In this document: one piece after another, positions 15,459 to 27,148 of the stretch | Layout: each line of letters starts with the position of its first letter | Numbering within the stretch: the stretch's first letter is position 1 | Assembly: GCA_030606485.1 (NCBI GenBank) | Contig: JAUWGH010000003.1 | Location: forward strand, 240,001 to 272,000 | Length of the DNA stretch: 32,000 nucleotides | DNA from: Promethearchaeota archaeon | GTDB lineage: Archaea; Asgardarchaeota; Lokiarchaeia; Sigyniarchaeales; SOKP01 | Direction of reading: 5' to 3' | Notes under the pieces: generated by a model | What the model was told of the DNA's origin: nothing | The model's database searches: none | What the model saw: only the letters and a program-made list of their open reading frames with translations | Program-made: the position numbers and the translations under genes

Positions 15459-16166
15459 TTACATTAATAACTTAAATTCAAAAATAGCTTTTAATTGTTC
15501 AGCAATTTTCTCTAATAAATTCTTTTCTTCTTCAAGGAAGGGCTTTTCCTCGAGATAATGTACAGAAATACATAATTCCTTATCCTTTATTAAATTTTTA
15601 ACTGTTAATTTCCAAGGGGTTTTTTTATAGTTGTCTGTTAAATATTCTTTTTTATCAAAAACTATTTTTGAACATATCATATCCGGAAATTTCCAGGCAT
15701 TTTGAATTTGCTTTTGAGTTTCTATTAGAATTTCTTCAATTGATATGTTAGGATTTTTTATGAGTTCAATAATATTAAATAAACAATTAAGTTCCTTAAC
15801 TCGTTCTTTTAATTTATTTTCTGCCTTTAAGATTTGCTTGCTTAAAATGACAACCACAATACCAATAAATAAAATTAAGACAGCTCGAAAAATATTTTCT
15901 ATAAGATTATTTAAAAACATATCCAATCCACTTAAAATGGAAAAGAAAATGAGTAATCCAGAGAGAAAGATTGGTACAACCAAACCTTTGTTTCTCCACC
16001 AAAGACATGCAAAAATAATAGGGATATAAAAGAAATGGGAAAAAATAATGCTTATTTTTAGAATAAATTGAAAATAATATTGTAAAAAAAGTGAAGCAGA
16101 TAACAGAATAAATATGATAAGAAATCTTAATTTTTCTTTAGAAATATTAGTTTTTAATCCACCCAT
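15459..16166 (-). CDS. Membrane sensor module (about 4 TM plus GAF-like domain) with no output domain
   Basis: FSHFFYIPIIFACLWW resembles the N-terminal TM module of archaeal sensor kinases. LKERVKELNCLF...AWKFPDMICSKI...PFLEEEKNLLEKIAEQL resembles the GAF-like segment that usually precedes PAS/HisKA domains. The stop follows directly. Confidence 0.65.
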   Translation of the reverse strand: MGGLKTNISKEKLRFLIIFILLSASLFLQYYFQFILKISIIFSHFFYIPIIFACLWWRNKGLVVPIFLSGLLIFFSILSGLDMFLNNLIENIFRAVLILFIGIVVVILSKQILKAENKLKERVKELNCLFNIIELIKNPNISIEEILIETQKQIQNAWKFPDMICSKIVFDKKEYLTDNYKKTPWKLTVKNLIKDKELCISVHYLEEKPFLEEEKNLLEKIAEQLKAIFEFKLLM

Positions 16167-16212: not shown

Positions 16213-17517
16213 TTAATGGGTTGCACAAGAGATACATGGGTCAAACGATCTTATAATCATTTGCGCTTGTTTTTTTATCTGATTAAAATCCCCAGTTCTT
16301 TCATATAATTTTTGGCTTTGTGTTGTTAGGATTTCATCAATAATTGGCAAATTAATTTCAGTTGCAATAAAAAGCTTCACTTTATCAATTAATCTCTTTT
16401 TATTTACATGATAATAGTGTATGAGAGTTCCTCGAGGTGCTTCAACCATGCCGAGTCCTTCATTATTTCTTAAAAAATTAATGGGACGTATATCATTTTT
16501 TTGTGTCAATTCAGTATCGTCTAGAATTGATAACCCTTCGTAAGAAACAAACATCATTTCTATTAGCCTGATAACGTTTGAGAATAAAATACTATTTTGC
16601 CATTCTTTATTAAAAAGTCCAATATAGGATTGCAGTTCATCTATTCCATAATCATTAATTATTTTATATCGTGCGAGTGGGCCAACAAGAATGTTTTGGT
16701 TGTTTTTTAAATAGAAATCAATTCCACGTATATCCTCCTGCTTATCAAAATATTGCGAATGTTTATATACGGGAAAATCTGCGATAATTTTATTATTTTG
16801 TGCTAATCGTAAGAGTCCATTATACCGGTCATATTTCTCATCATTATGCATTCCCATATAAGCAGGATTTGGTAAGGAATAAACATCAGGAGGATCAAAT
16901 TGAGAAAATATCTCTTGGAATCGCTCAATAATCCATTTTAAATTATTTATAGAATTTTGCAGATATTTCCGTGCAATATTTATTTCTTTTTTGGAAGGAG
17001 AAAAAAATACACCACCGATAATGGGCGTTATTAAATGAACAGACCTTCCACCAAATAAATTCCCAATTTCATTGCCAATTTTTATTAATTCATACATATT
17101 TGAAGTTAATTTGGGATCAAAATGGATTAATTCATTCAGTGAGAGTGGTTTTGGTTGTTTATCCAAAATTACAAAAAGGTCGGGAAATGCTTGAAAAAAG
17201 AAATGCATTGAATGTGATCTTATCAACTCACCAATCATTAATAGTCGTCTCAAAAGAACTGATTGATTTGATGGTTCGACTTCATACATACTCTCTATTG
17301 CTTTACAACTAGCTATTGTCTGTGATGCGTGACACAATCCACATATTCTTGATGCAATTCTAGGAGTATCGATTAGCCTTTTGTCAAGTAAAATATTTTC
17401 AAACCCTCGAAATATCTCAAGATCAAAATTCACACTTGAAATTTCATCTTTCTGAAGTAAAATTTTTATATTTCCATGTCCTTCCACCCGAGTGCATACA
17501 TCAACTACTTTCTTCAT
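16213..17517 (-). CDS. mvhA: [NiFe]-hydrogenase large subunit, group 3 (MvhA-like), atypical
   Basis: TRVEGHG, RGFE, L1 RICGLCHASQ, SHSMHFF..AFPD, GGRSVH, VGPLAR, VEAPRGTLIH and L2 FDPCISCATH followed directly by TAA. Confidence 0.9.
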   Translation of the reverse strand: MKKVVDVCTRVEGHGNIKILLQKDEISSVNFDLEIFRGFENILLDKRLIDTPRIASRICGLCHASQTIASCKAIESMYEVEPSNQSVLLRRLLMIGELIRSHSMHFFFQAFPDLFVILDKQPKPLSLNELIHFDPKLTSNMYELIKIGNEIGNLFGGRSVHLITPIIGGVFFSPSKKEINIARKYLQNSINNLKWIIERFQEIFSQFDPPDVYSLPNPAYMGMHNDEKYDRYNGLLRLAQNNKIIADFPVYKHSQYFDKQEDIRGIDFYLKNNQNILVGPLARYKIINDYGIDELQSYIGLFNKEWQNSILFSNVIRLIEMMFVSYEGLSILDDTELTQKNDIRPINFLRNNEGLGMVEAPRGTLIHYYHVNKKRLIDKVKLFIATEINLPIIDEILTTQSQKLYERTGDFNQIKKQAQMIIRSFDPCISCATH

Positions 17518-17523
17518 AATTTT

Positions 17524-18285
17524 TTACCTCTTGGTTTTTGGTTTTGAATAACGATAGAAAATTCCTTTATATTTCCTTAGACCTTTGGCAAGATTTACAG
17601 TGCTCAAAAAATTAATGGCATTAGAGGTAAAATCGTTTTTAATTGGTCCCATGCACCCATCACAAGGAAGGTTCAATTTAATGCACTTAGATTCACAACC
17701 ATCTCTAGTTATTGGTCCCAAGCATAAAATTCCTCTTTCTAAAAAGCAACGTTTATCTTTATTTTCGATATCTAAGTTATATTCTCTAGGCATTAGTTTA
17801 TTAATTCGTTTCATAAATTTGCTTTCAATATTATCAGTTCTAAATTCGCAATCTACACAAACATTTTTTTCAGGCAAAATAATCTCTTTATTTTCTAGCA
17901 GTCTAATAATACAATTGCCTAATAATTTAGAAGGTGGTGGACATCCAGGAATTATTCCATCTATTTCTATATAATTGGATATGGGTTCTGCTTCTTTTAC
18001 AGTGGAAAGTGCAAGCATTCCACCAAAAGCAGCACAAGTTCCTAAAGCAATTACTCTCTTGGATTTACTCCGAATATTTTTAAGAATATCGATTTGTTTT
18101 TCCTCTGAAACACATCCCTCAATTAAAGCGATATCATTTTCAGAGATATTATTTTCATCTCTCATAAATGAACAACGAACGAGATTTACCTTTTCAAGAA
18201 ATTGAGGAAAGATATCTAATGAAATCATTGTTGAGATACAACCACTACAAGAAGTCAATGATTCGATTAAGAAACTAGGTTTCAT
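17524..18285 (-). CDS. mvhG: [NiFe]-hydrogenase small subunit, group 3 (MvhG-like)
   Basis: LTSCSGC, IEGCV, LGTCAAFGG, IPGCPP, CVDC and CFLERGILCLGPITRDGCESKC...PCDGCMGP; no Tat signal. Start moved from 18312 to the ATG at 18285, which has GAGGAG just upstream and overlaps the previous stop by 11 nt. Confidence 0.88.
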   Translation of the reverse strand: MKPSFLIESLTSCSGCISTMISLDIFPQFLEKVNLVRCSFMRDENNISENDIALIEGCVSEEKQIDILKNIRSKSKRVIALGTCAAFGGMLALSTVKEAEPISNYIEIDGIIPGCPPPSKLLGNCIIRLLENKEIILPEKNVCVDCEFRTDNIESKFMKRINKLMPREYNLDIENKDKRCFLERGILCLGPITRDGCESKCIKLNLPCDGCMGPIKNDFTSNAINFLSTVNLAKGLRKYKGIFYRYSKPKTKR

Positions 18286-20806
18286 TTTTAATCTCCTCTG
18301 ATAATCTTTCATAAAAAGAATTTACAATCTCTGCAAATTTATTGCCCTCAACTGCACTTAATGATTTACGAATTATTCGATTTTCAGCAATAGGACCTAA
18401 AACTTCATTTAAAAGTTTAACTTTTTGTCTTACTTGATCCACACTATTTATATATCGGCAGGAATCTTTTCTGCAACCAATAATCATTACTCCATCAAAT
18501 CCTAATTTGAAAGATTTAAAAATTAAACTCGTATCTACCCGCCCTGTGCATGGAACTTTAATAATAAAGATGTTGGGATTATAGGAAAGTTTCTTTAAGC
18601 CAGCTTCATCGGCTGCACCATATCCGCAAGAACGACAGCAGAATGCGATTATTTTTGGTCGTAAATTGAATTTAGAAAATACCTCAATTGATTTCAGTAT
18701 CTTTTCAGTAGTATCAATGTTTAAGTCAAGTGCATTTGTGGGACAAACACTTACACACGTTCCGCATCCTTTACATTTGAATTTATCAATCGCAATTTTG
18801 TCTGCCTCAATTGTGATTGCATTGTAAGGACAAGATAAAATGCATAAACCACACAATCCGCAATTCTCTTCTTTGATTTCGATACCGCTAAATTCTGTAA
18901 TTAAATAATCATTTGATAACAATGAAATAATTTTAATAGCTACATCATTGGAAGATGAGATCACTGAATTATAATCTAATGGACCTTTAATTGAACCGAC
19001 ACCAAAAATACCTGATGCCAGCGTTTCCTCACTCATAAAACCATGATCGTCTAATGTAAAATCTAAAGTCTTTCGAAGTTCTTTTAAATCTTTATTTGGA
19101 ACAAAATTGACATTTAACACGATCATATCGGAGGGATACTGCTCTGAATCAGAAATAATTATTTTCTTATTTCCTTTCTCTATGATTTCAATATTTTCAT
19201 AATAATGAAATCTTTCATCAGATGGATCTAACATAAATCCAGTAGATTTCTTAATTTTATTTAAATCAAAAAATATGTTAATTTTACAATCAGGAAGTTG
19301 TGAATAAATAGATTCTAAATACTTTATGGCGAGAGTACCACAATATTCCGCTAAATAATCAAATGGGCCTAAACATTGAATTATTGAGATTGATTTCGGT
19401 GGTTTTCCATCAGATAATTTCAAAATTTTACCTTCCGTTGGACCATCCGCTGATAAGATACGTTCAAATTCCGGTGATATAATTACATCATTTTGTGGAT
19501 TATAGTTATAAGGTTTTAATTCAGAATAAAAATCCGCACCAATTGCAATTACTTTTGTTCCAACTCTAATCCTTATTTTTTCAAATTTCTGATCCAAATC
19601 AATCGCATTATTATTGCAAGCTCGCTCGCAAATTCTACATTGTCGGCAAGTTTCAATATCTTCTTGGTCAATCACTGGAGCATATGGATAAGATTGAACA
19701 TAAGGAATATAAATTAACTTCCTTGGTGTTAATCCAAATTCATATTGATTACTTTTTTCTATACTGCAAATTTCAATACATCTTTTACATCCAGTACATT
19801 TCTTTTCATCAACATATCGGGGTTTTTTAACCAAATCAATTGAAAAATTTCCTACTTCACCTGATACTTTTTCTATTTCAGTATTAGTTAAAATTTCGAT
19901 ATTTTTTTCTTTAACAACCTCACCTATCATTTCTGACATAAGACAAATTGAACAATCACCCATTCCATAAATTTTACTCCACCTGGCAATTTTACCTCCT
20001 AATGTTGGGGATTTTTCAATTAAATAAACCTTAATCCCAGCCCTTGCTAGACTTAATGCAAGTGTCATCCCTGCAATTCCGCCACCCAAAATAGCACAAC
20101 TTTTTTCAATCTTAACTGTTTTTACTTGAACATCTTTTTGTAATGCAACACGCTCAACTGCTGCTTCAACTAAAATTTGTGCTTTTTTTAACGCCAGAGT
20201 AGGTTCTTTTAGATGCACCCAGCAACATTGCTCTCTAATATTGGCAATTTCAATATTAACTTTATCAATAACTCCATCAAAAATTCTTTCAAATATATGC
20301 AAATGAGTTTTTGGAGAACACGCAGCAATAACAATCTTATTTAAATAATTATCTTTAGACCATTTAGTAATCTTTTCTAAATTTTTCTCTTGACAAAGAT
20401 TATCAAAAATCTTCACAGCAACTACATTGGGAATTCTTTTAATATAATTTTCAAGTGCATTAATACTTATAAGATTAGAAATTTCAGTATTGCATTTACA
20501 AATAATAACCCCCACTCGATTAATCTCACTACCAACCTTATCCAAATATTCAATATCCTCCCCTGCCAAAATTTTTTTATCAATATTCATTAAATTTATA
20601 ACTCGTTTTCCGTCCTCCGTGAGAAAATAGGATTTTTTATCTTTATTTATTAAAGTCCCAAGTTTTTTAAGGTGAAAGTTTAATTGCCCTGTAGTCTCTA
20701 AACCTAACCTATCCATCAAATCCGTGTAAGGAATATAACCTTCTTTATCAAGAAGTAATAAAACCCTCCTCCTAAATGGATGAGATAAAATTGAATATAT
20801 ATCCAT
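18275..20806 (-). CDS. hdrA: Fusion: ArsR-like winged-helix DNA-binding domain + HdrA-like flavoprotein + MvhD [2Fe-2S] domain
   Basis: aa 1-75: LSHPFRRRVLLLL...YTDLMDRLGLETTGQLNFHLKKL...YFLTEDG (wHTH). Then HdrA motifs RVGVIICKC, AACSPKTH, NIREQCCWVH, GGGIAG, DCSIC, inserted 2x[4Fe-4S], EFER..GPTEG and C-terminal 2x[4Fe-4S]. The last about 128 aa are MvhD (FCCRSCGY, VPCTGRVD, GCRKDSCRY). GGGAG SD-like site upstream. Confidence 0.88.
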   Translation of the reverse strand: MDIYSILSHPFRRRVLLLLDKEGYIPYTDLMDRLGLETTGQLNFHLKKLGTLINKDKKSYFLTEDGKRVINLMNIDKKILAGEDIEYLDKVGSEINRVGVIICKCNTEISNLISINALENYIKRIPNVVAVKIFDNLCQEKNLEKITKWSKDNYLNKIVIAACSPKTHLHIFERIFDGVIDKVNIEIANIREQCCWVHLKEPTLALKKAQILVEAAVERVALQKDVQVKTVKIEKSCAILGGGIAGMTLALSLARAGIKVYLIEKSPTLGGKIARWSKIYGMGDCSICLMSEMIGEVVKEKNIEILTNTEIEKVSGEVGNFSIDLVKKPRYVDEKKCTGCKRCIEICSIEKSNQYEFGLTPRKLIYIPYVQSYPYAPVIDQEDIETCRQCRICERACNNNAIDLDQKFEKIRIRVGTKVIAIGADFYSELKPYNYNPQNDVIISPEFERILSADGPTEGKILKLSDGKPPKSISIIQCLGPFDYLAEYCGTLAIKYLESIYSQLPDCKINIFFDLNKIKKSTGFMLDPSDERFHYYENIEIIEKGNKKIIISDSEQYPSDMIVLNVNFVPNKDLKELRKTLDFTLDDHGFMSEETLASGIFGVGSIKGPLDYNSVISSSNDVAIKIISLLSNDYLITEFSGIEIKEENCGLCGLCILSCPYNAITIEADKIAIDKFKCKGCGTCVSVCPTNALDLNIDTTEKILKSIEVFSKFNLRPKIIAFCCRSCGYGAADEAGLKKLSYNPNIFIIKVPCTGRVDTSLIFKSFKLGFDGVMIIGCRKDSCRYINSVDQVRQKVKLLNEVLGPIAENRIIRKSLSAVEGNKFAEIVNSFYERLSEEIKNET

Positions 20807-21162
20807 ATTTCTAATCTCCCTTTAATTATTTTTACCAATCATTATTTGGAAATTTATAATTCTTTGTTGAAAACCGAAAATAAATATTTTTAAAAAAAAT
20901 AATTATTATTTTCACTATGACAAATAAAGTTATCAAAAATAAAAATCTTACTGATCAAAAATCTTCAAAGTGTAATTATTCTCATTTTTAAACTGAAAAT
21001 AAAATTAGTTAAAAAAAAAAAAAGAAAATTAAAGTTATTAAAAAGACAATTTTTTTCTTTAAAACCACATAAAAATGAAAGAAAAAAAGATGTATTTCAA
21101 TTCTTTTTAGAAATAACTTGTCAAAATAAAGATAAGTTGATAAATCACTTATGATAATGAAA

Positions 21163-21187
21163 ATTGTCAATTTTATATTTTGACAAT
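21163..21187. promoter_or_regulatory. Inverted repeat ATTGTCAA-N9-TTGACAAT, candidate operator enclosing a TATA-like spacer
   Basis: Perfect 8-bp arms at 21163-21170 and 21180-21187 with spacer TTTTATATT, in the divergent intergenic region between the hydrogenase operon and the Mtd cluster. Confidence 0.5.
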
Positions 21188-21312
21188 ATTAGTTGTTAAA
21201 ATGGAGATAATTCTTTTTATCAAATTATTTTTATTATATTGTTAAGGTTAATTACTCGGTAAAAGAAAAAATAAAAAATAATTAAATAATTAAACAAAAG
21301 GTCCTTGATTAA

Positions 21313-21972
21313 ATGGAAGTTTTAGAAATCGAGCCGATAAAAAATAAAAAAATTTTTCTTTATATAATAGAGAAAGAAGATTATAAAATATCGCACGTAA
21401 AAGCAAAAATTTTCGAGGACTTTTTAAAAAATTATAAATTTGATTTTGCTACTATTGACTTATTGGGTAAAAATTTAAAACCATTAAATAATTCACCCAT
21501 AGCGAAATTTTTAGAAGATTTTTCAATCGAATTTATCGGTATTGACATTCCTGAATACGCAAAAGGTTATTTATTGGTAGAAATATCCGATAAAAAAGAA
21601 CAAATTAAGGAATTAGAATCAGAATATGAAAGTTTATCCAATGATCCCTCTGGAAAAGAATCATTTAAGGGGCAAAATCTAAAATCTTGGATTGATTTAT
21701 TAAAAGAGGAAGTTAATGATAAAGAACAATATATAAAATTAAAAGTTAAGCCTCAATGGATCGTTAAAAAAATATTGGACAGGGCAAGAACTTATAAGAA
21801 AAATTCCTTAATTATTTTACATTTAAGTCCAGAAGAATTAGTTCCTGAATTACAAAAATTGTTTCAGGAACTCAAAATAAATGTTATTATAAATGATTTT
21901 AGCACTGGAGTTTCAGATCGAACTTTTGATGCTAAGAATAAAGTAATAATTTCAAATCAAATCATAAAATAG
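21313..21972 (+). CDS. Hypothetical protein (domain copy A1; paralog of 24101..24733)
   Basis: Clear paralogy with A2 (FATIDL, IPEYAKGYL vs IPDYAKIYL, QNLKSWIDLLKEEV vs QNLNSWIHLLKSEV), and weaker similarity to the N-domains of the following genes. Confidence 0.8.
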   Translation: MEVLEIEPIKNKKIFLYIIEKEDYKISHVKAKIFEDFLKNYKFDFATIDLLGKNLKPLNNSPIAKFLEDFSIEFIGIDIPEYAKGYLLVEISDKKEQIKELESEYESLSNDPSGKESFKGQNLKSWIDLLKEEVNDKEQYIKLKVKPQWIVKKILDRARTYKKNSLIILHLSPEELVPELQKLFQELKINVIINDFSTGVSDRTFDAKNKVIISNQIIK

Positions 21973-21985
21973 GAGGTAAAAAAAA

Positions 21986-23668
21986 TTGCAAGTATTAGAA
22001 TTAAAACCTTTAAAAAATAAAAAATTAGAAATAATATTAATGGAAAGTGAGTTTCCAATTAGTTGGTGGTTGGAACCAACAAAAGAACAGCTGGAAGAAT
22101 CTTTAAATTTCAGTTTTATGTCAAAGGATTATCTCAAGCTTATTGAAGACATGTTGCGGAAATATCAACCTAATTTTGTAGCTGAAGAACGAGGGTTGCG
22201 TGAAAGTGATAAACTTCATTATGATGATGCTTTTATTGATTTATTTAGAGATTTTAAAATACTATATAAAATGGTAGATATTAATGAAAATGCTTTGGGG
22301 TATCTCGCTTCAACAATAGATAAAAATGCAGATCTTCTAAATGGAATAAAAGCAGAAATTAAAAAAATCAAAAAAAAGGGAGGTTTTCATCCTAATGATC
22401 ACTATTTCCAGCAATTAATTGTTTGGGAGGACTATTTACAGAGTGAATACAAAAATCAAGAGGAAGAAATAAGGTATAAGATCCGAGAAGCTTGGATGAT
22501 GATGGGGGTTCTTGACATAGCAAAAGAACAGAAAGAGAAAAACTTAAAATGTCTATTTATTTGTGATAAAAGGCATTTTGATGGTATTACAAGCCTTGCA
22601 GATGATCTGGGAATAGAAGTTCAAAAATTTGAAGTTAAGAAAAGTATTTTAAATATTGGGGATTTAGCGAAGCCAAATACGATAAAAGAGTTTATAAAGG
22701 TATCACTTATGGAAGTCGCCCCCATTAAAATAAAGAAAACAAGTTCCTTAGAGAAAATTGTGTATTTTCTTGATACAGACGAGCATGCCTCTCCCTTTGA
22801 TATTAATATGGCCTATGATGCAGGATTTGATGTAGTTATTCCTATTAACAATGTAAAAGCTGAACAAGTGCCACAACTCGTGCAAGATGCGATATTCTCG
22901 CGAAAGCCAAAAGCTCCGACCAGTTTTTTCATTGGTGGAGCGAATGTAAGGGAAGGCGAAAAAATTGCAAAAGAAGTTGTAAAGTCGTTGGTACCACCCT
23001 TCGAAGTCCCTGTGGTCATAGACCCGCGAGGGTCTCATACTACGGCTTCGGCAGTTGTTGCAAAAACTTTGGAAGCAGCAATGAAAAATGGGATAAATAA
23101 TATTTCTGGAAAAAAAGCGGTCATATTAGGAACTGGTCCTGTCGGGCGAATTGCAGCAATAATTGCGGCAAAACAAAATTGTGAAACAGTTTTAGTTGAG
23201 ACATGGGATAAGGGAAGTGAAAAAGCTGTAAAGCAGCTTGCAAAAGAATTAACTAAAGGGGCAGGAGAAGGTGCTTCTGAAATACTTGGAGAATTCGCAA
23301 TAACGGATGAGAAAAAATTTGAAATAATAAAAGATGCTGATATAATCTGGTCTTTAGCAGCTGCAGGAGTTCAAATCTTATCAGAAGAATTGATGAGTAA
23401 ATTACCAAAAAATAAAATCGTAATAGACATTAATTTAGTTCCGCCATACGGAATTGAAGGAATAAAACCAAAACACGATAATAAAGAAATATATCCAGGA
23501 ATTTTTGGAATTGGAGCATTAGGAATAGGTCATTTAAAATCTAATACGGAAAGTTCTATTCTTAAAGAAGCTACCAAAACCAAAGGAAAGAAAATATTCG
23601 ATTATAACATTGCTTTTGAAATTGCAAAAGAATTATTATTTGGTAAAGAGATTACAATATCTCGTTAA
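21986..23668 (+). CDS. Unknown N-domain fused to NAD(P)-dependent methylene-H4MPT dehydrogenase (MtdA/MtdB family), copy B1
   Basis: TTG start with GGAGGT SD. From about nt 22754: DTDEHASPFDINMAYDAG, LVQDAIFSR, FIGG, PPF, DPRGSHTTASA (Mtd N-domain), then Rossmann GTGPVG and DINLVPPYGIEG. Confidence 0.85.
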   Translation: MQVLELKPLKNKKLEIILMESEFPISWWLEPTKEQLEESLNFSFMSKDYLKLIEDMLRKYQPNFVAEERGLRESDKLHYDDAFIDLFRDFKILYKMVDINENALGYLASTIDKNADLLNGIKAEIKKIKKKGGFHPNDHYFQQLIVWEDYLQSEYKNQEEEIRYKIREAWMMMGVLDIAKEQKEKNLKCLFICDKRHFDGITSLADDLGIEVQKFEVKKSILNIGDLAKPNTIKEFIKVSLMEVAPIKIKKTSSLEKIVYFLDTDEHASPFDINMAYDAGFDVVIPINNVKAEQVPQLVQDAIFSRKPKAPTSFFIGGANVREGEKIAKEVVKSLVPPFEVPVVIDPRGSHTTASAVVAKTLEAAMKNGINNISGKKAVILGTGPVGRIAAIIAAKQNCETVLVETWDKGSEKAVKQLAKELTKGAGEGASEILGEFAITDEKKFEIIKDADIIWSLAAAGVQILSEELMSKLPKNKIVIDINLVPPYGIEGIKPKHDNKEIYPGIFGIGALGIGHLKSNTESSILKEATKTKGKKIFDYNIAFEIAKELLFGKEITISR

Positions 23669-23680
23669 ATTCAAAACTCA

Positions 23681-23710
23681 CTTCTTTTTTTTTATTTTTT
23701 TTTATTTTAT
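23681..23710 (+). terminator. T-rich tract downstream of copy B1
   Basis: CTTCTTTTTTTTTATTTTTTTTATTTTAT begins 13 nt after the stop codon. Confidence 0.5.
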
Positions 23711-24100
23711 GTTTAATTAATATAGAGCATATTTTAATTAATGATAAAAAAAGAATTGTATAGTTGATTATTTTAATTATCAATTTTATCAAACTTCTTT
23801 TGTTATATTTTTTTCATAGTAAGTTCTAAAAAAGAAAACTTTTTAATTTTTGACAATAAGTTTTGTTATTTTGATTAGTGCAGTTGTCTATTTTTTCAAA
23901 ATTTTTTTATCAAAATTTTTTCATAACTAATTCTAAAATAGAAATCTTTTAATTGATGATAAAAAAAATGGTCAAAATGATAAATTAATTAGTCAAATTT
24001 CTTAAAATCTTTCTTATCAAATACATTAAATGATTGGATTTAAATTAATTAAATAGAAAAAAAAAATTTCAGAATATAATAAAATTTGGAATGGGTAAAA

Positions 24101-24733
24101 ATGGAAGTATTAGATTTTAAAAAATTGGAAAATAATAAGAAGGTTTCTCTATATCTAATAGAAAAGGATAAAAAAGAATTATCTGACGCAGAACATGAAA
24201 ATTTATTGGCTCTCTTAAGAAAACAAAAATTCAATTTTGCTACGATTGATTTAAGCGATGATGATTTAAAAAAGATTTACCTGACTCCTTTAGCACAATT
24301 TTTTGATAATTTTGGGATACCATATTATTATGTTAATATCCCTGACTACGCTAAAATTTATTTATTAAATGAAATCTCAGAAAAAAAAGAACAAATTGAG
24401 GAATTACAAGGAGAATATGAGAAACTCTGTTCAGATCCTGCCGAGAAAGAGTCATTAAAGGCTCAAAATCTGAACTCATGGATACACCTCTTAAAAAGTG
24501 AAGTAAAAGACAAAGAAAATCATTTAGATTTAAAGCTAACACCTTTATGGATCACAAAAAAGGTATTAGATATAATTAAGATGATTAATGACGATGAGAT
24601 TAGTATTATTCATTTTACCCGTAAAGAATTGTTTTCTGAATTGAAAAAGTTATTTGAATCTCAAAATATCAAGGTTATTAATCTTGAGACAAGCAAAATT
24701 ATGAAAAAAAAATCAATTTTAATTTTAACTTAA
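24101..24733 (+). CDS. Hypothetical protein (domain copy A2)
   Basis: Paralog of 21313..21972. The ATG at 24101 (MEVLDF, cf. MEVLEI) is preferred over the TTG at 24086 in the ORF track. Confidence 0.8.
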   Translation: MEVLDFKKLENNKKVSLYLIEKDKKELSDAEHENLLALLRKQKFNFATIDLSDDDLKKIYLTPLAQFFDNFGIPYYYVNIPDYAKIYLLNEISEKKEQIEELQGEYEKLCSDPAEKESLKAQNLNSWIHLLKSEVKDKENHLDLKLTPLWITKKVLDIIKMINDDEISIIHFTRKELFSELKKLFESQNIKVINLETSKIMKKKSILILT

Positions 24734-24751
24734 ATAGGAGGTAAGTAAAAA

Positions 24752-25450
24752 ATGCAAGTATTAGAATTAGAAAGATTAAAAAATAAAACTCTTAAATTGT
24801 TATTAGTAGAGAGTGAATTTCCAATAGATTGGTCATTGGAAGCATCTTCAGAGGAAGAAGCTATTGCTGCAAAATTATTTATTATGTCTAAGAAATATTT
24901 GCAGTTTATTGAAGATATAGTAAAAAATCACAAGCCAGATTTTATAGTGGAAGAAAAAGGAATGCGCTCAAGTGATGATTTACAATATGATGATGCTTTA
25001 GTAGATTTATTCAGAGAATATAACATTCGATATAAAATGGTTGATATTTCCGAGAATGCTTTAGGTTATCTTGCTTCGACAATTGACAGAAATGTAGGTC
25101 TTTTAAAAGACTTTAGAGTAGAAATTGAAAATTTAAAAGAGAAGGGTGGTTTTCATCCTAATGATTTTAAACTTGAGCAATTAGTTGCCTGGAGGGATTA
25201 TTTACAGGGCGAATATTCTAATCAAGAAGATGAGATAAGATATGAAGTCCGTGAATCTTGGATGATGATGGGGATTCTTGATTTAGCAAGGAAGATTGAG
25301 AAAAAGCATTTAAAAGCAATATTTATCTGTGATAAAGAACATTTTGATGGAATAAAATCTCTAGCAGATGATTTAGGAATAAATATTGAAGTAATAAATG
25401 TAAATAAAATTTTAAAAAAAATAGAACAGCATTCGACACAAATTAATTAA
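24752..25450 (+). CDS. Stand-alone copy of the unknown N-domain (N2)
   Basis: GGAGGT SD. Aligns end-to-end with the first about 230 aa of B1 and B2 (ESEFPIDW, PDFIVEE, ENALGYL, GGFHPND, RESWMMMG, FICDKEHFDGI) and stops before the Mtd part. Confidence 0.82.
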   Translation: MQVLELERLKNKTLKLLLVESEFPIDWSLEASSEEEAIAAKLFIMSKKYLQFIEDIVKNHKPDFIVEEKGMRSSDDLQYDDALVDLFREYNIRYKMVDISENALGYLASTIDRNVGLLKDFRVEIENLKEKGGFHPNDFKLEQLVAWRDYLQGEYSNQEDEIRYEVRESWMMMGILDLARKIEKKHLKAIFICDKEHFDGIKSLADDLGINIEVINVNKILKKIEQHSTQIN

Positions 25451-25474
25451 AAAATAAGAGGTAATTTTTATAAA

Positions 25475-27148
25475 ATGCAATCTTTAGAATTAAAACCTTT
25501 AAAAAATAAGACTCTTAAGTTAGTATTAGTTGAGAGTGAATTTCCAATAGATTGGTCGTTGGAAGAGCCGACAGGGGAAGAAGCCATTGCTGCAAATATA
25601 TTTTTTGTTTCTAAGGAATATATGGAATTTACTGAAAATTTGGTGAAGAAATACAATCCTGATTTTGCAGTAGAGGATAAAGGGATGAGGTCAAATGATA
25701 GGCTGCTTTATGAGGATGAATTTGTAGATTTATTCAGAAAAAATGAGATCCCCTACAAAATGATAGGCATCCCTGAGAATGCTCTAAATTATATCTCCTC
25801 GGGATTGAATGGTAGTAAAGAACTTATAGAGAAATTTACTTCGGAGATTAGGGAATTAAAAGAAAAAGGCGGAGTTCATCCAAATGATCCACATTATCAA
25901 CAATTAATGATGTGGAGAGAACATTTACGGGATGAGTATAATAAGCAGGAAGATGAGATAAGATATAAAATCCGCGAATCTTGGATGATGATGGGAATTC
26001 TTGAATTAGGAAAAAAAATGGAGAAAAAACACTTGAAGGCATTATTTATTTGTGATAAAAGGCATTTTGATGGCATTTCGACTTTAGCAGATGATCTTGG
26101 AATTGACATTGAACAAATAAATATCAAAAAAGTTGCTAAAGATTTTCATGATGATATTTCTTCGGTAAAAGAATTAGTAAATACATCTGTTCTCGAAATA
26201 ATCCCGATAAAGATAAAGAAAAAAGTGAAGGCGGAAAGTATTTTGTATTTTTTTGATACTGATGAATATGCATCACCTTTTGATATTAATATGGCCTATG
26301 ATGCAGGGTTTAATGTTGTTATTCCTTTTTGCAACATTACGGCTGATAGAGTCGCTAGATTGGTCCAAGATGCTATGTTTTCACGAAAACCAAATGCTCC
26401 AACCGTTTATTTTGTTGGTGGATCAGATGTTGAAGAAGGTGAGAAAGTTGCAGAAGAGGTACAAAATGCACTTGTTCCTCCTTTTGAGGCCCCTGTAATT
26501 ATAGATCCTCGTGGAGCTCATACTACGGCTTCAGCTGTTGTTGCTAAAACCATAGAAATTGCAAGAAAACACGGAATAACAGATTTTACAGGAAAGAAAA
26601 TAGTTATTTTAGGGGGTACGGGACCAGTAGGACAAATTGGAGCGATACTTGCAGCTAAATTTCACGCTACACCCGTAATAATCTCCCGTCGGGAAAAGGC
26701 TGTAAAAGAACTTGCAAAGAAATTAATGGAAAAAGCAGGAGAAGGCGCTTCTGAAATAATTGGAATAGCGGCAACCACCGATGAAGAAAGATTTGAAATA
26801 GTAAAAGATGCCGATATAATTTGGTCAGTTGCAAAAGCCGGAATTCAAATGATATCAAAAGAATTAATGAAAAAACTCCCGCCAAACAAGATTGTTCTTG
26901 ATATTAATTTAGTTCCACCTTACGGAATTGAAGGACTAAAACCAAATTCTAACGACGATGAGATTTATCCAGGGATTTATGGAATCGGTGCTTTAGATAT
27001 AGGACGTCTTAAATATAAAATTGAAAGCCAGATTTTTAAGGATGCAACCAATACCAAGGGAAAGAAGGTGTTCGACTATAACTATGCTTTTGAAACAGCA
27101 AAAAAGATACTATTCGGAACTGAAATTACAGTTACACACACAAAATAA
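25475..27148 (+). CDS. Unknown N-domain fused to MtdA/MtdB-family methylene-H4MPT dehydrogenase, copy B2
   Basis: Same architecture as B1: DTDEYASPFDINMAYDAG, LVQDAMFSR, DPRGAHTTASA, GGTGPVG, ISRR and DINLVPPYGIEG. GAGGT SD upstream. Confidence 0.85.
   Translation: MQSLELKPLKNKTLKLVLVESEFPIDWSLEEPTGEEAIAANIFFVSKEYMEFTENLVKKYNPDFAVEDKGMRSNDRLLYEDEFVDLFRKNEIPYKMIGIPENALNYISSGLNGSKELIEKFTSEIRELKEKGGVHPNDPHYQQLMMWREHLRDEYNKQEDEIRYKIRESWMMMGILELGKKMEKKHLKALFICDKRHFDGISTLADDLGIDIEQINIKKVAKDFHDDISSVKELVNTSVLEIIPIKIKKKVKAESILYFFDTDEYASPFDINMAYDAGFNVVIPFCNITADRVARLVQDAMFSRKPNAPTVYFVGGSDVEEGEKVAEEVQNALVPPFEAPVIIDPRGAHTTASAVVAKTIEIARKHGITDFTGKKIVILGGTGPVGQIGAILAAKFHATPVIISRREKAVKELAKKLMEKAGEGASEIIGIAATTDEERFEIVKDADIIWSVAKAGIQMISKELMKKLPPNKIVLDINLVPPYGIEGLKPNSNDDEIYPGIYGIGALDIGRLKYKIESQIFKDATNTKGKKVFDYNYAFETAKKILFGTEITVTHTK

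Follow-up and report, generated by a model that had tools for sequence, protein, structure and literature searches.

A winged-helix domain fused to HdrA-MvhD in Asgard archaea and a palindromic candidate operator specific to its loci

Within a stretch of 32,000 nt from a Promethearchaeota archaeon (assembly GCA_030606485.1, contig JAUWGH010000003.1, positions 240,001 to 272,000; in the following called the window), we analyzed a gene encoding an ArsR-like winged helix-turn-helix (wHTH) domain fused in frame to HdrA-MvhD. The fusion is old, its N-terminal domain has a winged-helix fold, and its loci carry a palindromic candidate operator that is specific to them. From the comparative evidence, the wHTH domain would bind this operator, and the protein is probably a bifunctional "trigger enzyme", that is, a HdrA-MvhD subunit that also controls its own and linked one-carbon (C1) genes via its wHTH domain on the palindrome.

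The open reading frame (ORF) extends over positions 18275 to 20806 on the reverse strand and encodes 843 amino acids (aa) without an internal stop; positions 20582–20806 correspond to aa 1–75. Its parts are as follows.

20567–20806, reverse strand: ArsR-like winged helix (Pfam DUF7347), aa 1–80, assigned by Pfam, AlphaFold2 and Foldseek
20651–20692, reverse strand: recognition helix, aa 39–52, followed by the wing (aa 53–62) and the predicted dimerization helix (aa 64–80)
20519–20566, reverse strand: flexible linker of ~16 aa (aa 81–96) that joins the winged helix to the N-terminal domain of HdrA, recognized by low model confidence and poor conservation
18662–20518, reverse strand: HdrA body, aa 97–715, with N-terminal FeS, FAD/thioredoxin-reductase, inserted ferredoxin and C-terminal ferredoxin domains (NCBIfam HdrA2, solved HdrA 8rvu)
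18275–18661, reverse strand: MvhD domain, aa 716–843, and stop codon (Pfam FlpD, solved MvhD 5odc_D)

An earlier sequence-only reading had taken the first ~75 aa for an archaeal ArsR-like wHTH joined in frame to HdrA-MvhD, with a Shine-Dalgarno-like site at the start of the wHTH and no Met at the HdrA boundary. All of this was borne out. The N-terminal domain matches the winged-helix family DUF7347 (Pfam PF24038) at aa 2–71 with 46.8 bits at a cut-off of 27.6 (E-value 3.6e-12) and is of the ArsR/HxlR type by fold; weak matches below the cut-off comprise HTH_24, HTH_20 and the NCBIfam ArsR/SmtB profile (22.4 bits, cut-off 55). The 843-aa frame is continuous, the fusion is conserved and no stop codon has been lost. 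The Shine-Dalgarno-like sequence GGGAGAT lies 7 nt ahead of the ATG, and M73 sits within the last wHTH helix and is not conserved (consensus Ile). Position 1 of the NCBIfam HdrA2 profile falls on aa 97, from where the match runs to aa 837 (E-value 1.7e-179; 598.6 bits, under the equivalog cut-off of 1100). The solved HdrA chains 8rvu, 5odc and 7bkb align from aa 94–97 (8rvu, E-value 1.9e-120) and solved MvhD chains from aa 715–718 (5odc_D, E-value 5.6e-26), while Pfam FlpD/MvhD covers aa 719–836 (118.8 bits, cut-off 22.3, E-value 1.8e-34).

A misassembly, a lost stop codon or a wrongly assigned start could join a separate regulator gene to hdrA and mimic such a fusion, and the first two had been named as risks for the junction. 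Contigs from three other studies span positions 20200–20677 or 20200–20818 and differ by substitutions only, without any indel, which excludes a misassembly; their intergenic cover is patchy. The same architecture and start recur in 152 protein clusters (463–1476 aa), which share the first 100 residues with 63–95% identity, nearly all being ~849 aa long with DUF7347, HdrA and FlpD domains. According to their source names, they stem from Loki-, Hel-, Thor-, Hod-, Hermod- and Odin-type Asgard archaea. Homologs that always encode the two parts as separate genes would have spoken against the fusion, but the orthologs were always found fused. The candidates for split, stand-alone forms amounted to 15 short matches, all single-member and mostly labeled "partial", which are fragments from contig ends. 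ORFs of 104–192 aa in fusion-less genomes of the window's own family (f1) were likewise considered as split wHTH domains, but are only 24–39% identical and hence paralogs. We also looked for an internal start yielding a domain-free HdrA. In the window, GGGGAGGA is followed by an in-frame TTG (Leu90), but most relatives have TTA or CTN at this position, and no conserved in-frame start with a Shine-Dalgarno sequence exists in the linker across 24 orthologs. Because the Leu90 codon differs among relatives and M73 is not conserved, we rejected an internal start as a conserved feature. With nothing found in its favor, an artificial origin of the fusion is refuted and its remaining probability negligible.

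To place the fusion taxonomically, we used a sample of 201 genomes of the Asgard phylum, which are related to each other. At least 45 of them, from five families, encode a protein matching the fusion from residue 1, with identities of 60–100% in f1, 58% in f19, 53% in f16, 40% in f12 and 37% in one genus of f7. All other matches are paralogs beginning at aa 94–100, two of them in this genome. In a tree of the HdrA part only, the paralogs without wHTH form one clan (support 1.00) and the domain-bearing proteins therefore constitute the complementary clan, a topology that fits a single fusion event. Derived characters of the fusion clade are the change of CHC to CxC, a 7-residue deletion in the GSRD motif and the replacement of KTFPTxDC by RWxxIxxxDC. 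Whichever family is compared, the wHTH is conserved to a similar or higher degree than the catalytic domains (family identities of 0.76, 0.61, 0.51, 0.44 and 0.45 versus 0.68, 0.57, 0.54, 0.39 and 0.35 for the FAD domain), and the linker is the least conserved segment (6–31% identity outside its own family). Judged from these comparisons, the fusion is ancient and under selection. A profile search of 1.84 billion representatives yielded about six 50%-identity clusters with the wHTH-HdrA-MvhD architecture. Several of the HdrA paralogs in the same genome consist of adjacent ORF pieces (C8:216164-217801, C10:156577-158304, C1:56928-58580), which fit in-frame TGA (selenocysteine) codons; TGA also occurs inside HdrA matches of related genomes.

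Because a sequence search with the isolated wHTH against solved structures gave a single marginal match (1y0u, E-value 0.026), a fold search was needed. AlphaFold2 (aa 1–105, alignment of 27 orthologs) predicted a canonical winged helix with a predicted local distance difference test (pLDDT) score >90 for aa 11–80. It consists of helix 10–22, strand 24–26, helices 27–34 and 39–52, hairpin 53–62 and helix 64–80; the pLDDT drops to <50 at aa 88–103, in the linker region. The top Foldseek matches were CadC, YodB, DNA-bound NolR, SmtB and DNA-bound QsrR (probability 1.0, TM-score ~0.6, E-value ~2e-3). The nearest solved folds, with HlyU and BigR also among them, belong without exception to DNA-binding regulators (ArsR/SmtB, HxlR and MarR kinds), some of them solved on DNA (4omy, 4hqe). 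Residues invariant in the 27 orthologs include H9, R12, G40, H45, K48, K55 and Y60. The recognition helix carries the invariant N43, H45, K47 and K48, and the wing K55 and Y60; the net charge of the domain ranges from +1 to +8. There is no Cys within aa 1–80 in any of 20 orthologs, and an ArsR-type metal or thiol-sensing site is absent.

DUF7347 domains are not restricted to this protein. Elsewhere they head MalT-like tetratricopeptide repeat regulators and tandem-wHTH proteins and also occur on membrane proteins. A second DUF7347-like winged helix in this genome (L002:1459-2328, forward strand; C8:370450-371319) heads a protein of 289 aa, the remainder of which resembles a polytopic membrane domain with no Pfam match above threshold. 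In the Asgard families f13 and f2, a DUF7347 winged helix is N-terminally fused to anaerobic ribonucleotide reductase. One of these proteins (L062:2968-5280, forward strand, 770 aa) shows the order wHTH, ATP-cone, NrdD; in the other (L063:2971-5301, forward strand, 776 aa), the wHTH is accompanied by no more than a weak NrdD match, and an ATP-cone was not reported. The wHTH-NrdD proteins may represent a second enzyme-regulator fusion of a like kind.

Looking upstream of the fusion gene, a gap of 506 bp separates it from a divergently oriented gene. The following elements were identified in this region and beyond; no strand is assigned to the palindromic sites.

20917–20936: candidate operator O1 (ATGACAA-N6-TTATCAA), exact match, genome rank 1 with 24.1 bits, 111–130 bp upstream of the hdrA ATG
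21151–21170: candidate operator O2, exact match, rank 2 with 21.2 bits, 143–162 bp upstream of the gene at 21313
21180–21199: candidate operator O3, one mismatch, rank 3 with 19.3 bits, 114–133 bp upstream of the gene at 21313
21313–23668, forward strand: divergent putative target operon with genes for two proteins, the first of 219 aa and unknown family, the second of 560 aa
23764–23996: four operator-like sites (at 23764, 23850, 23956 and 23977), one mismatch each, upstream of the second A-type gene at 24086
24086–27148, forward strand: second, paralogous set encoding proteins of 215 aa, 232 aa and 557 aa with Mpt_N, preceded by operator-like sites

The 560-aa protein possesses the same kind of N-terminal domain as the 219-aa protein, fused to a methylene-tetrahydromethanopterin dehydrogenase (Mtd)-like domain (Pfam Mpt_N, E-value 6e-27). 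The pair of ~219-aa and ~560-aa proteins is linked to the fusion operon in four families in two arrangements, divergent upstream in f1 and f19 and directly after the hydrogenase gene mvhA in f12 and f7. Genus g32 includes four genomes that have both the fusion operon and the Mtd-like gene and two that have neither. In total, the region 21313–27148 (forward strand) holds five copies of an uncharacterized ~220-aa domain, two of them fused to Mtd-like domains. This domain matches no Pfam family, and a language-model search returned Asgard hypothetical proteins only, together with a weak TraB/GumN lead (0.84).

The upstream regions of the orthologs share the palindrome WTGAYAA-N6-TTRTCAW, with conserved half-sites and variable spacers, and a fuller 7-6-7 consensus reads tTTGACAA-N6-TTGTCAAa. 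The exact pattern occurs four times in the 3.75-Mb genome, two of them in the 506-bp gap. When the genome was ranked with a matrix derived solely from 15 sites in other genera, ranks 1, 2 and 3 all fell into this gap, and ranks 8 (23977–23996, 17.1 bits) and 23 lay before the second Mtd cluster. Allowing at most one mismatch, the window contains eight matches, compared with 0.57 expected, a number reached by none of 100 shuffles. Seven of the eight fall in two intergenic regions, before the fusion and divergent genes and before the second Mtd cluster. Scoring by leave-group-out matrices placed the top site upstream of the operon for most f1, f19 and f12 loci, and in f12 and f7 a strong site is located in the gap ahead of the Mtd-like gene. 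Where an FrhB-like gene is present ahead of the fusion gene, the palindromes shift upstream of it.

The palindrome is specific to these loci. Seven 10-kb loci of HdrA paralogs without wHTH contain no site above 7.4 bits, and nine Mtd loci of fusion-less genomes (f8, f13, f2 and genus g44 of f7) none above 8.2 bits. In genus g32, the exact site occurs just once genome-wide, 78–98 bp upstream of the fusion gene, in each of three fusion-bearing genomes, and not at all in two fusion-less congeners (100% and 97% complete). No other conserved DNA-binding gene was found in the fusion loci. Two further signals were set aside. Direct repeats of TTRTCAW with a 21-bp spacing near some f1 starts are at most slightly raised in number (genome count 11, compared with 0–11, mostly <8, at other spacings). 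For a covariation between recognition helix and half-site there is a hint only, the change of Gln41 to Lys in f16 together with weak, rearranged sites, too little to use.

In HdrA of M. wolfeii, Cys197 of one protomer completes the N-terminal cluster of the other, making the protein an obligate dimer (PMC9012536). According to the alignment, no member of the fusion clade has lost the Cys197-equivalent pair or the N-domain Cys. A homodimer model of aa 1–90 reached an interface score (ipSAE, interaction prediction score from aligned errors) of 0.59, compared with 0.00 for the best control, with at least 86% contact agreement among runs and pLDDT ≥84. In the calibration of this tool, 20 of 30 proteins solved as one-chain pairs attained this mark, as did one of 23 solved as single chains. 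The modeled interface, made up of aa 1–8, 13 and 68–85, resembles that of ArsR dimers and does not involve the recognition helix. This predicted pairing may itself reflect likeness to solved ArsR dimers. The earlier suggestion that a dimeric HdrA suits a dimeric wHTH on a palindrome thus gains comparative support from three sides: the locus-specific 7-6-7 palindrome, the kept Cys197-equivalent and the predicted wHTH homodimer, which outscored its controls.

Several observations weigh against control by the fusion protein. Genome G099, from the same family (99% complete, 320 contigs), contains an A1/N1-Mtd operon accompanied by operator-like sites that are strong (22.4, 19.8 and 17.7 bits), but neither the wHTH fusion nor a clade-type MvhA was found in this assembly. 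These sites are located on L066 (G099:C120:1425-9601) near positions 108, 2592 and 2700, before the A1/N1-Mtd operon and before an HdrA-like gene. Either the fusion operon is unassembled or was recently lost in G099, or the site is read by a different factor. The f16 sites are weak, not exceeding 13.6 bits, and differently arranged, and several f1 loci reach only 12–16 bits. As the compared genomes are kin, the counts overstate independence. The control Mtd loci taken from other families are richer in G+C (0.41–0.49), which lowers the number of chance matches; yet the G+C-rich f7 loci carry sites. Finally, the likely B recognition element (BRE) and TATA elements are downstream of the site in f19 and overlap it in f12, and because the position of the operator relative to them differs among families, the sign of regulation cannot be read from it.

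The winged helix could instead be a protein-docking or scaffold module that clips HdrA-MvhD to another protein, such as an FrhB-like subunit or the Mtd-like proteins with their uncharacterized N-domain, while a separate regulator would read the palindrome. There is a precedent for this in an HdrA-like complex: the MvhD-type adaptor BamF of class II benzoyl-CoA reductase contacts BamI through a winged helix (bioRxiv 10.64898/2026.04.10.717634), for which reason a docking role has to be weighed as a rival. The retention of operator-like sites in G099 without a detected fusion points in the same direction, other DUF7347-type proteins that could read the site exist in every genome examined, and the high conservation of the wHTH would also fit a fixed protein interface. 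Against these points, both profile and fold place the domain among DNA-binding regulators, and its basic recognition helix and wing are retained. It is connected by a disordered, poorly conserved tether rather than packing on the body of the enzyme. Moreover, the occurrence of the operator follows that of the fusion, both inside one genus and between families, and no other conserved regulator gene lies alongside. We therefore regard docking as unlikely and DNA binding by the wHTH as the preferred reading.

On the enzyme side, two hydrogenase genes follow the fusion gene in the same operon.

17524–18312, reverse strand: mvhG-like hydrogenase small subunit, overlapping the hdrA-mvhD stop (Pfam Oxidored_q6, NCBIfam VhuG)
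16213–17517, reverse strand: mvhA-like [NiFe] hydrogenase large subunit (Pfam NiFeSe_Hases, NCBIfam VhuA)

The mvhG gene directly follows the fusion gene in 40 of 40 mapped loci (the truncated loci L006, L029 and L031 were not mappable). Among the 13 loci for which 4-kb flanks were fetched, mvhA comes after mvhG in 12; it was not seen in L040. By homology and this strict synteny, HdrA-MvhD, MvhG and MvhA would constitute a [NiFe] hydrogenase complex. A 235-aa ORF after mvhA on the same strand (15459–16166, reverse strand) has no Pfam or NCBIfam match and no BLAST match in the related loci fetched. In some f1 genomes, an FrhB/FdhB-like gene with two [4Fe-4S] and FrhB_N/C domains lies directly ahead of the fusion gene (L011:4170-5303, reverse; L020:277-1410, forward; L013:4132-5016, reverse), which suggests that the encoded protein is a cofactor-reducing subunit of the complex.

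The alignment to 8rvu and to paralogs showed that the GGGIAG motif for flavin adenine dinucleotide (FAD) binding, the N-domain Cys, both ferredoxin Cys sets and the Cys197-equivalent are kept in HdrA. The cluster motif of the thioredoxin-reductase domain (CxGSRD...YCSxxCC; aa 476–495, 19322–19379, reverse strand) retains two of its four Cys here. Some f1 relatives have none of them and f12, f7 and f16 have all four, so that the loss is confined to f1. In methanogen HdrA, this four-Cys cluster leads electrons to HdrBC (PMC9012536). No hdrB or hdrC was found in the operon of the window, nor in the related loci that were fetched. The loss of cluster Cys agrees with the missing adjacent hdrBC and suggests an altered electron route.

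These peculiarities also bear on the idea that wHTH-HdrA-MvhD, MvhG and MvhA form a dedicated H2 sensor with little or no catalysis, an archaeal counterpart of HoxBC/HupUV. The window MvhA has Gln in place of His in its L1 motif (RICGLCHASQ) and ends at the L2 His without an extension, and both these features and the loss of two of the four Cys of the HdrBC-side cluster, with no hdrBC beside the operon, would fit a sensor. They are not clade-wide, however. The Gln and the lack of an extension are peculiar to the MvhA copy of this genome, whereas MvhA of f19, f16, f12 and f7 has the His and a short C-terminal extension, and HdrA of f12, f7 and f16 keeps the four Cys. Furthermore, the window mvhA is one of only two MvhA-like (group-3-like large-subunit) genes in this genome, the operons of some relatives include the FrhB-like cofactor-reducing subunit, and the operon is co-inherited with Mtd-like enzymes. 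A dedicated sensor is thus very unlikely, and the same four observations point to a working enzyme that feeds the C1 pathway.

For a trigger enzyme, we propose the following mechanism. The N-terminal winged helix would be tethered to the enzyme body by the flexible ~16-residue linker. Because HdrA itself is probably dimeric, the two winged helices of the dimer would pair via helix 1 and the last helix, leaving the recognition helices free for both half-sites. The targets would be the own operon, the divergent operon with the Mtd-like gene and its paralogous copy, with operators about 110–160 bp upstream, and the protein would thereby set the expression of its own hydrogenase and of linked C1 enzymes. 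As the winged helix lacks Cys and an ArsR-type metal site, the signal would have to come from the enzyme body. It could consist in the redox state of the FAD and Fe-S clusters fed by H2, or in the assembly of the subunit into the complex. The more specific version, in which the complex is a one-component H2/redox sensor and electrons from H2 pass via MvhAG and MvhD to the HdrA FAD and the N-terminal Fe-S cluster to switch the wHTH dimer on or off its operator, is a possibility that we put forward tentatively and with some doubt.

Several known systems invite comparison. PutA of E. coli and Salmonella, a flavoenzyme that forms dimers, uses an N-terminal domain to bind operators within the divergent promoter region of the cluster that encodes it, and it controls genes according to the redox state of its flavin. 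With its N-terminal DNA-binding domain on a flavoenzyme and its divergent promoter, it is closest in logic to the Asgard fusion. PutA differs in being a bacterial proline dehydrogenase with a ribbon-helix-helix domain, and its redox control has been shown, whereas it is conjectured for the Asgard fusion. The closest archaeal precedent is the regulator RbkR (PMC5397151), in which an N-terminal winged helix is likewise joined to an enzyme, a riboflavin kinase, and which controls genes of the pathway it belongs to; RbkR, too, was first recognized through its operators by comparative genomics. As a small soluble kinase sensing its own nucleotide ligands, however, RbkR is unlike the multi-cluster subunit of a large hydrogenase complex considered here.

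Among the HdrA proteins, HdrA2 of Methanosarcina, other HdrA-MvhD fusions (NF040770) and HdrA of the MvhAGD-HdrABC complex (5odc, 8rvu) have the same HdrA domain order, and the HdrA-MvhD fusions share the C-terminal MvhD. None of them has an N-terminal DNA-binding domain; the profiles and structures begin at aa 94–97 of the Asgard protein. The latter is further set apart by the absence of adjacent hdrBC, the score below the equivalog level, CxC instead of CHC and the degraded HdrBC-side cluster in f1. With the ArsR/SmtB and HxlR regulators (YodB, QsrR), it shares the fold, the predicted dimer via the first and last helices and a palindromic candidate operator. Unlike these, the Asgard domain has neither Cys nor a metal or thiol site and never stands alone in this ortholog group. 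BamF likewise has a winged helix within an HdrA/MvhD-type electron-bifurcating complex, but as an internal protein interface rather than an N-terminal, tethered basic domain with a matching candidate operator.

The regulatory [NiFe] hydrogenases HoxBC/HupUV belong to group 2b and signal through a separate histidine kinase and response regulator. They resemble the Asgard system in tying a hydrogenase to the control of hydrogenase genes. In the latter, the DNA-binding domain is located on the complex itself, no kinase gene was found in the fusion locus, and the sensor marks are not clade-wide. Enzyme and wHTH in one chain, together with candidate operators before the own and the linked Mtd operons, are the features by which the Asgard fusion would qualify as a trigger enzyme on sequence evidence. 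Enzyme-regulator fusions are a known class; what appears to be new is such a fusion on HdrA-MvhD. In the literature searched, we found no description of a DNA-binding domain on HdrA, none joining HdrA, a winged helix and Asgard archaea, and nothing on DUF7347, and a 2024 survey of HdrA evolution mentions no DNA-binding fusion.

H2 metabolism is central to current models of Asgard life and of the origin of eukaryotes. To our knowledge, almost nothing has been reported on how Asgard archaea regulate it, and we know of no archaeal H2 sensor that has been described. If our interpretation is correct, this would be the first case in the Hdr/Mvh family of a core hydrogenase/flavin-bifurcation subunit with its own DNA-binding domain and a dedicated operator, and it would provide a compact link of redox state to transcription. 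The 95-residue domain and the 20-bp site form a testable pair. The association with Mtd-like genes further suggests an unrecognized electron route from H2 into the archaeal Wood-Ljungdahl pathway.

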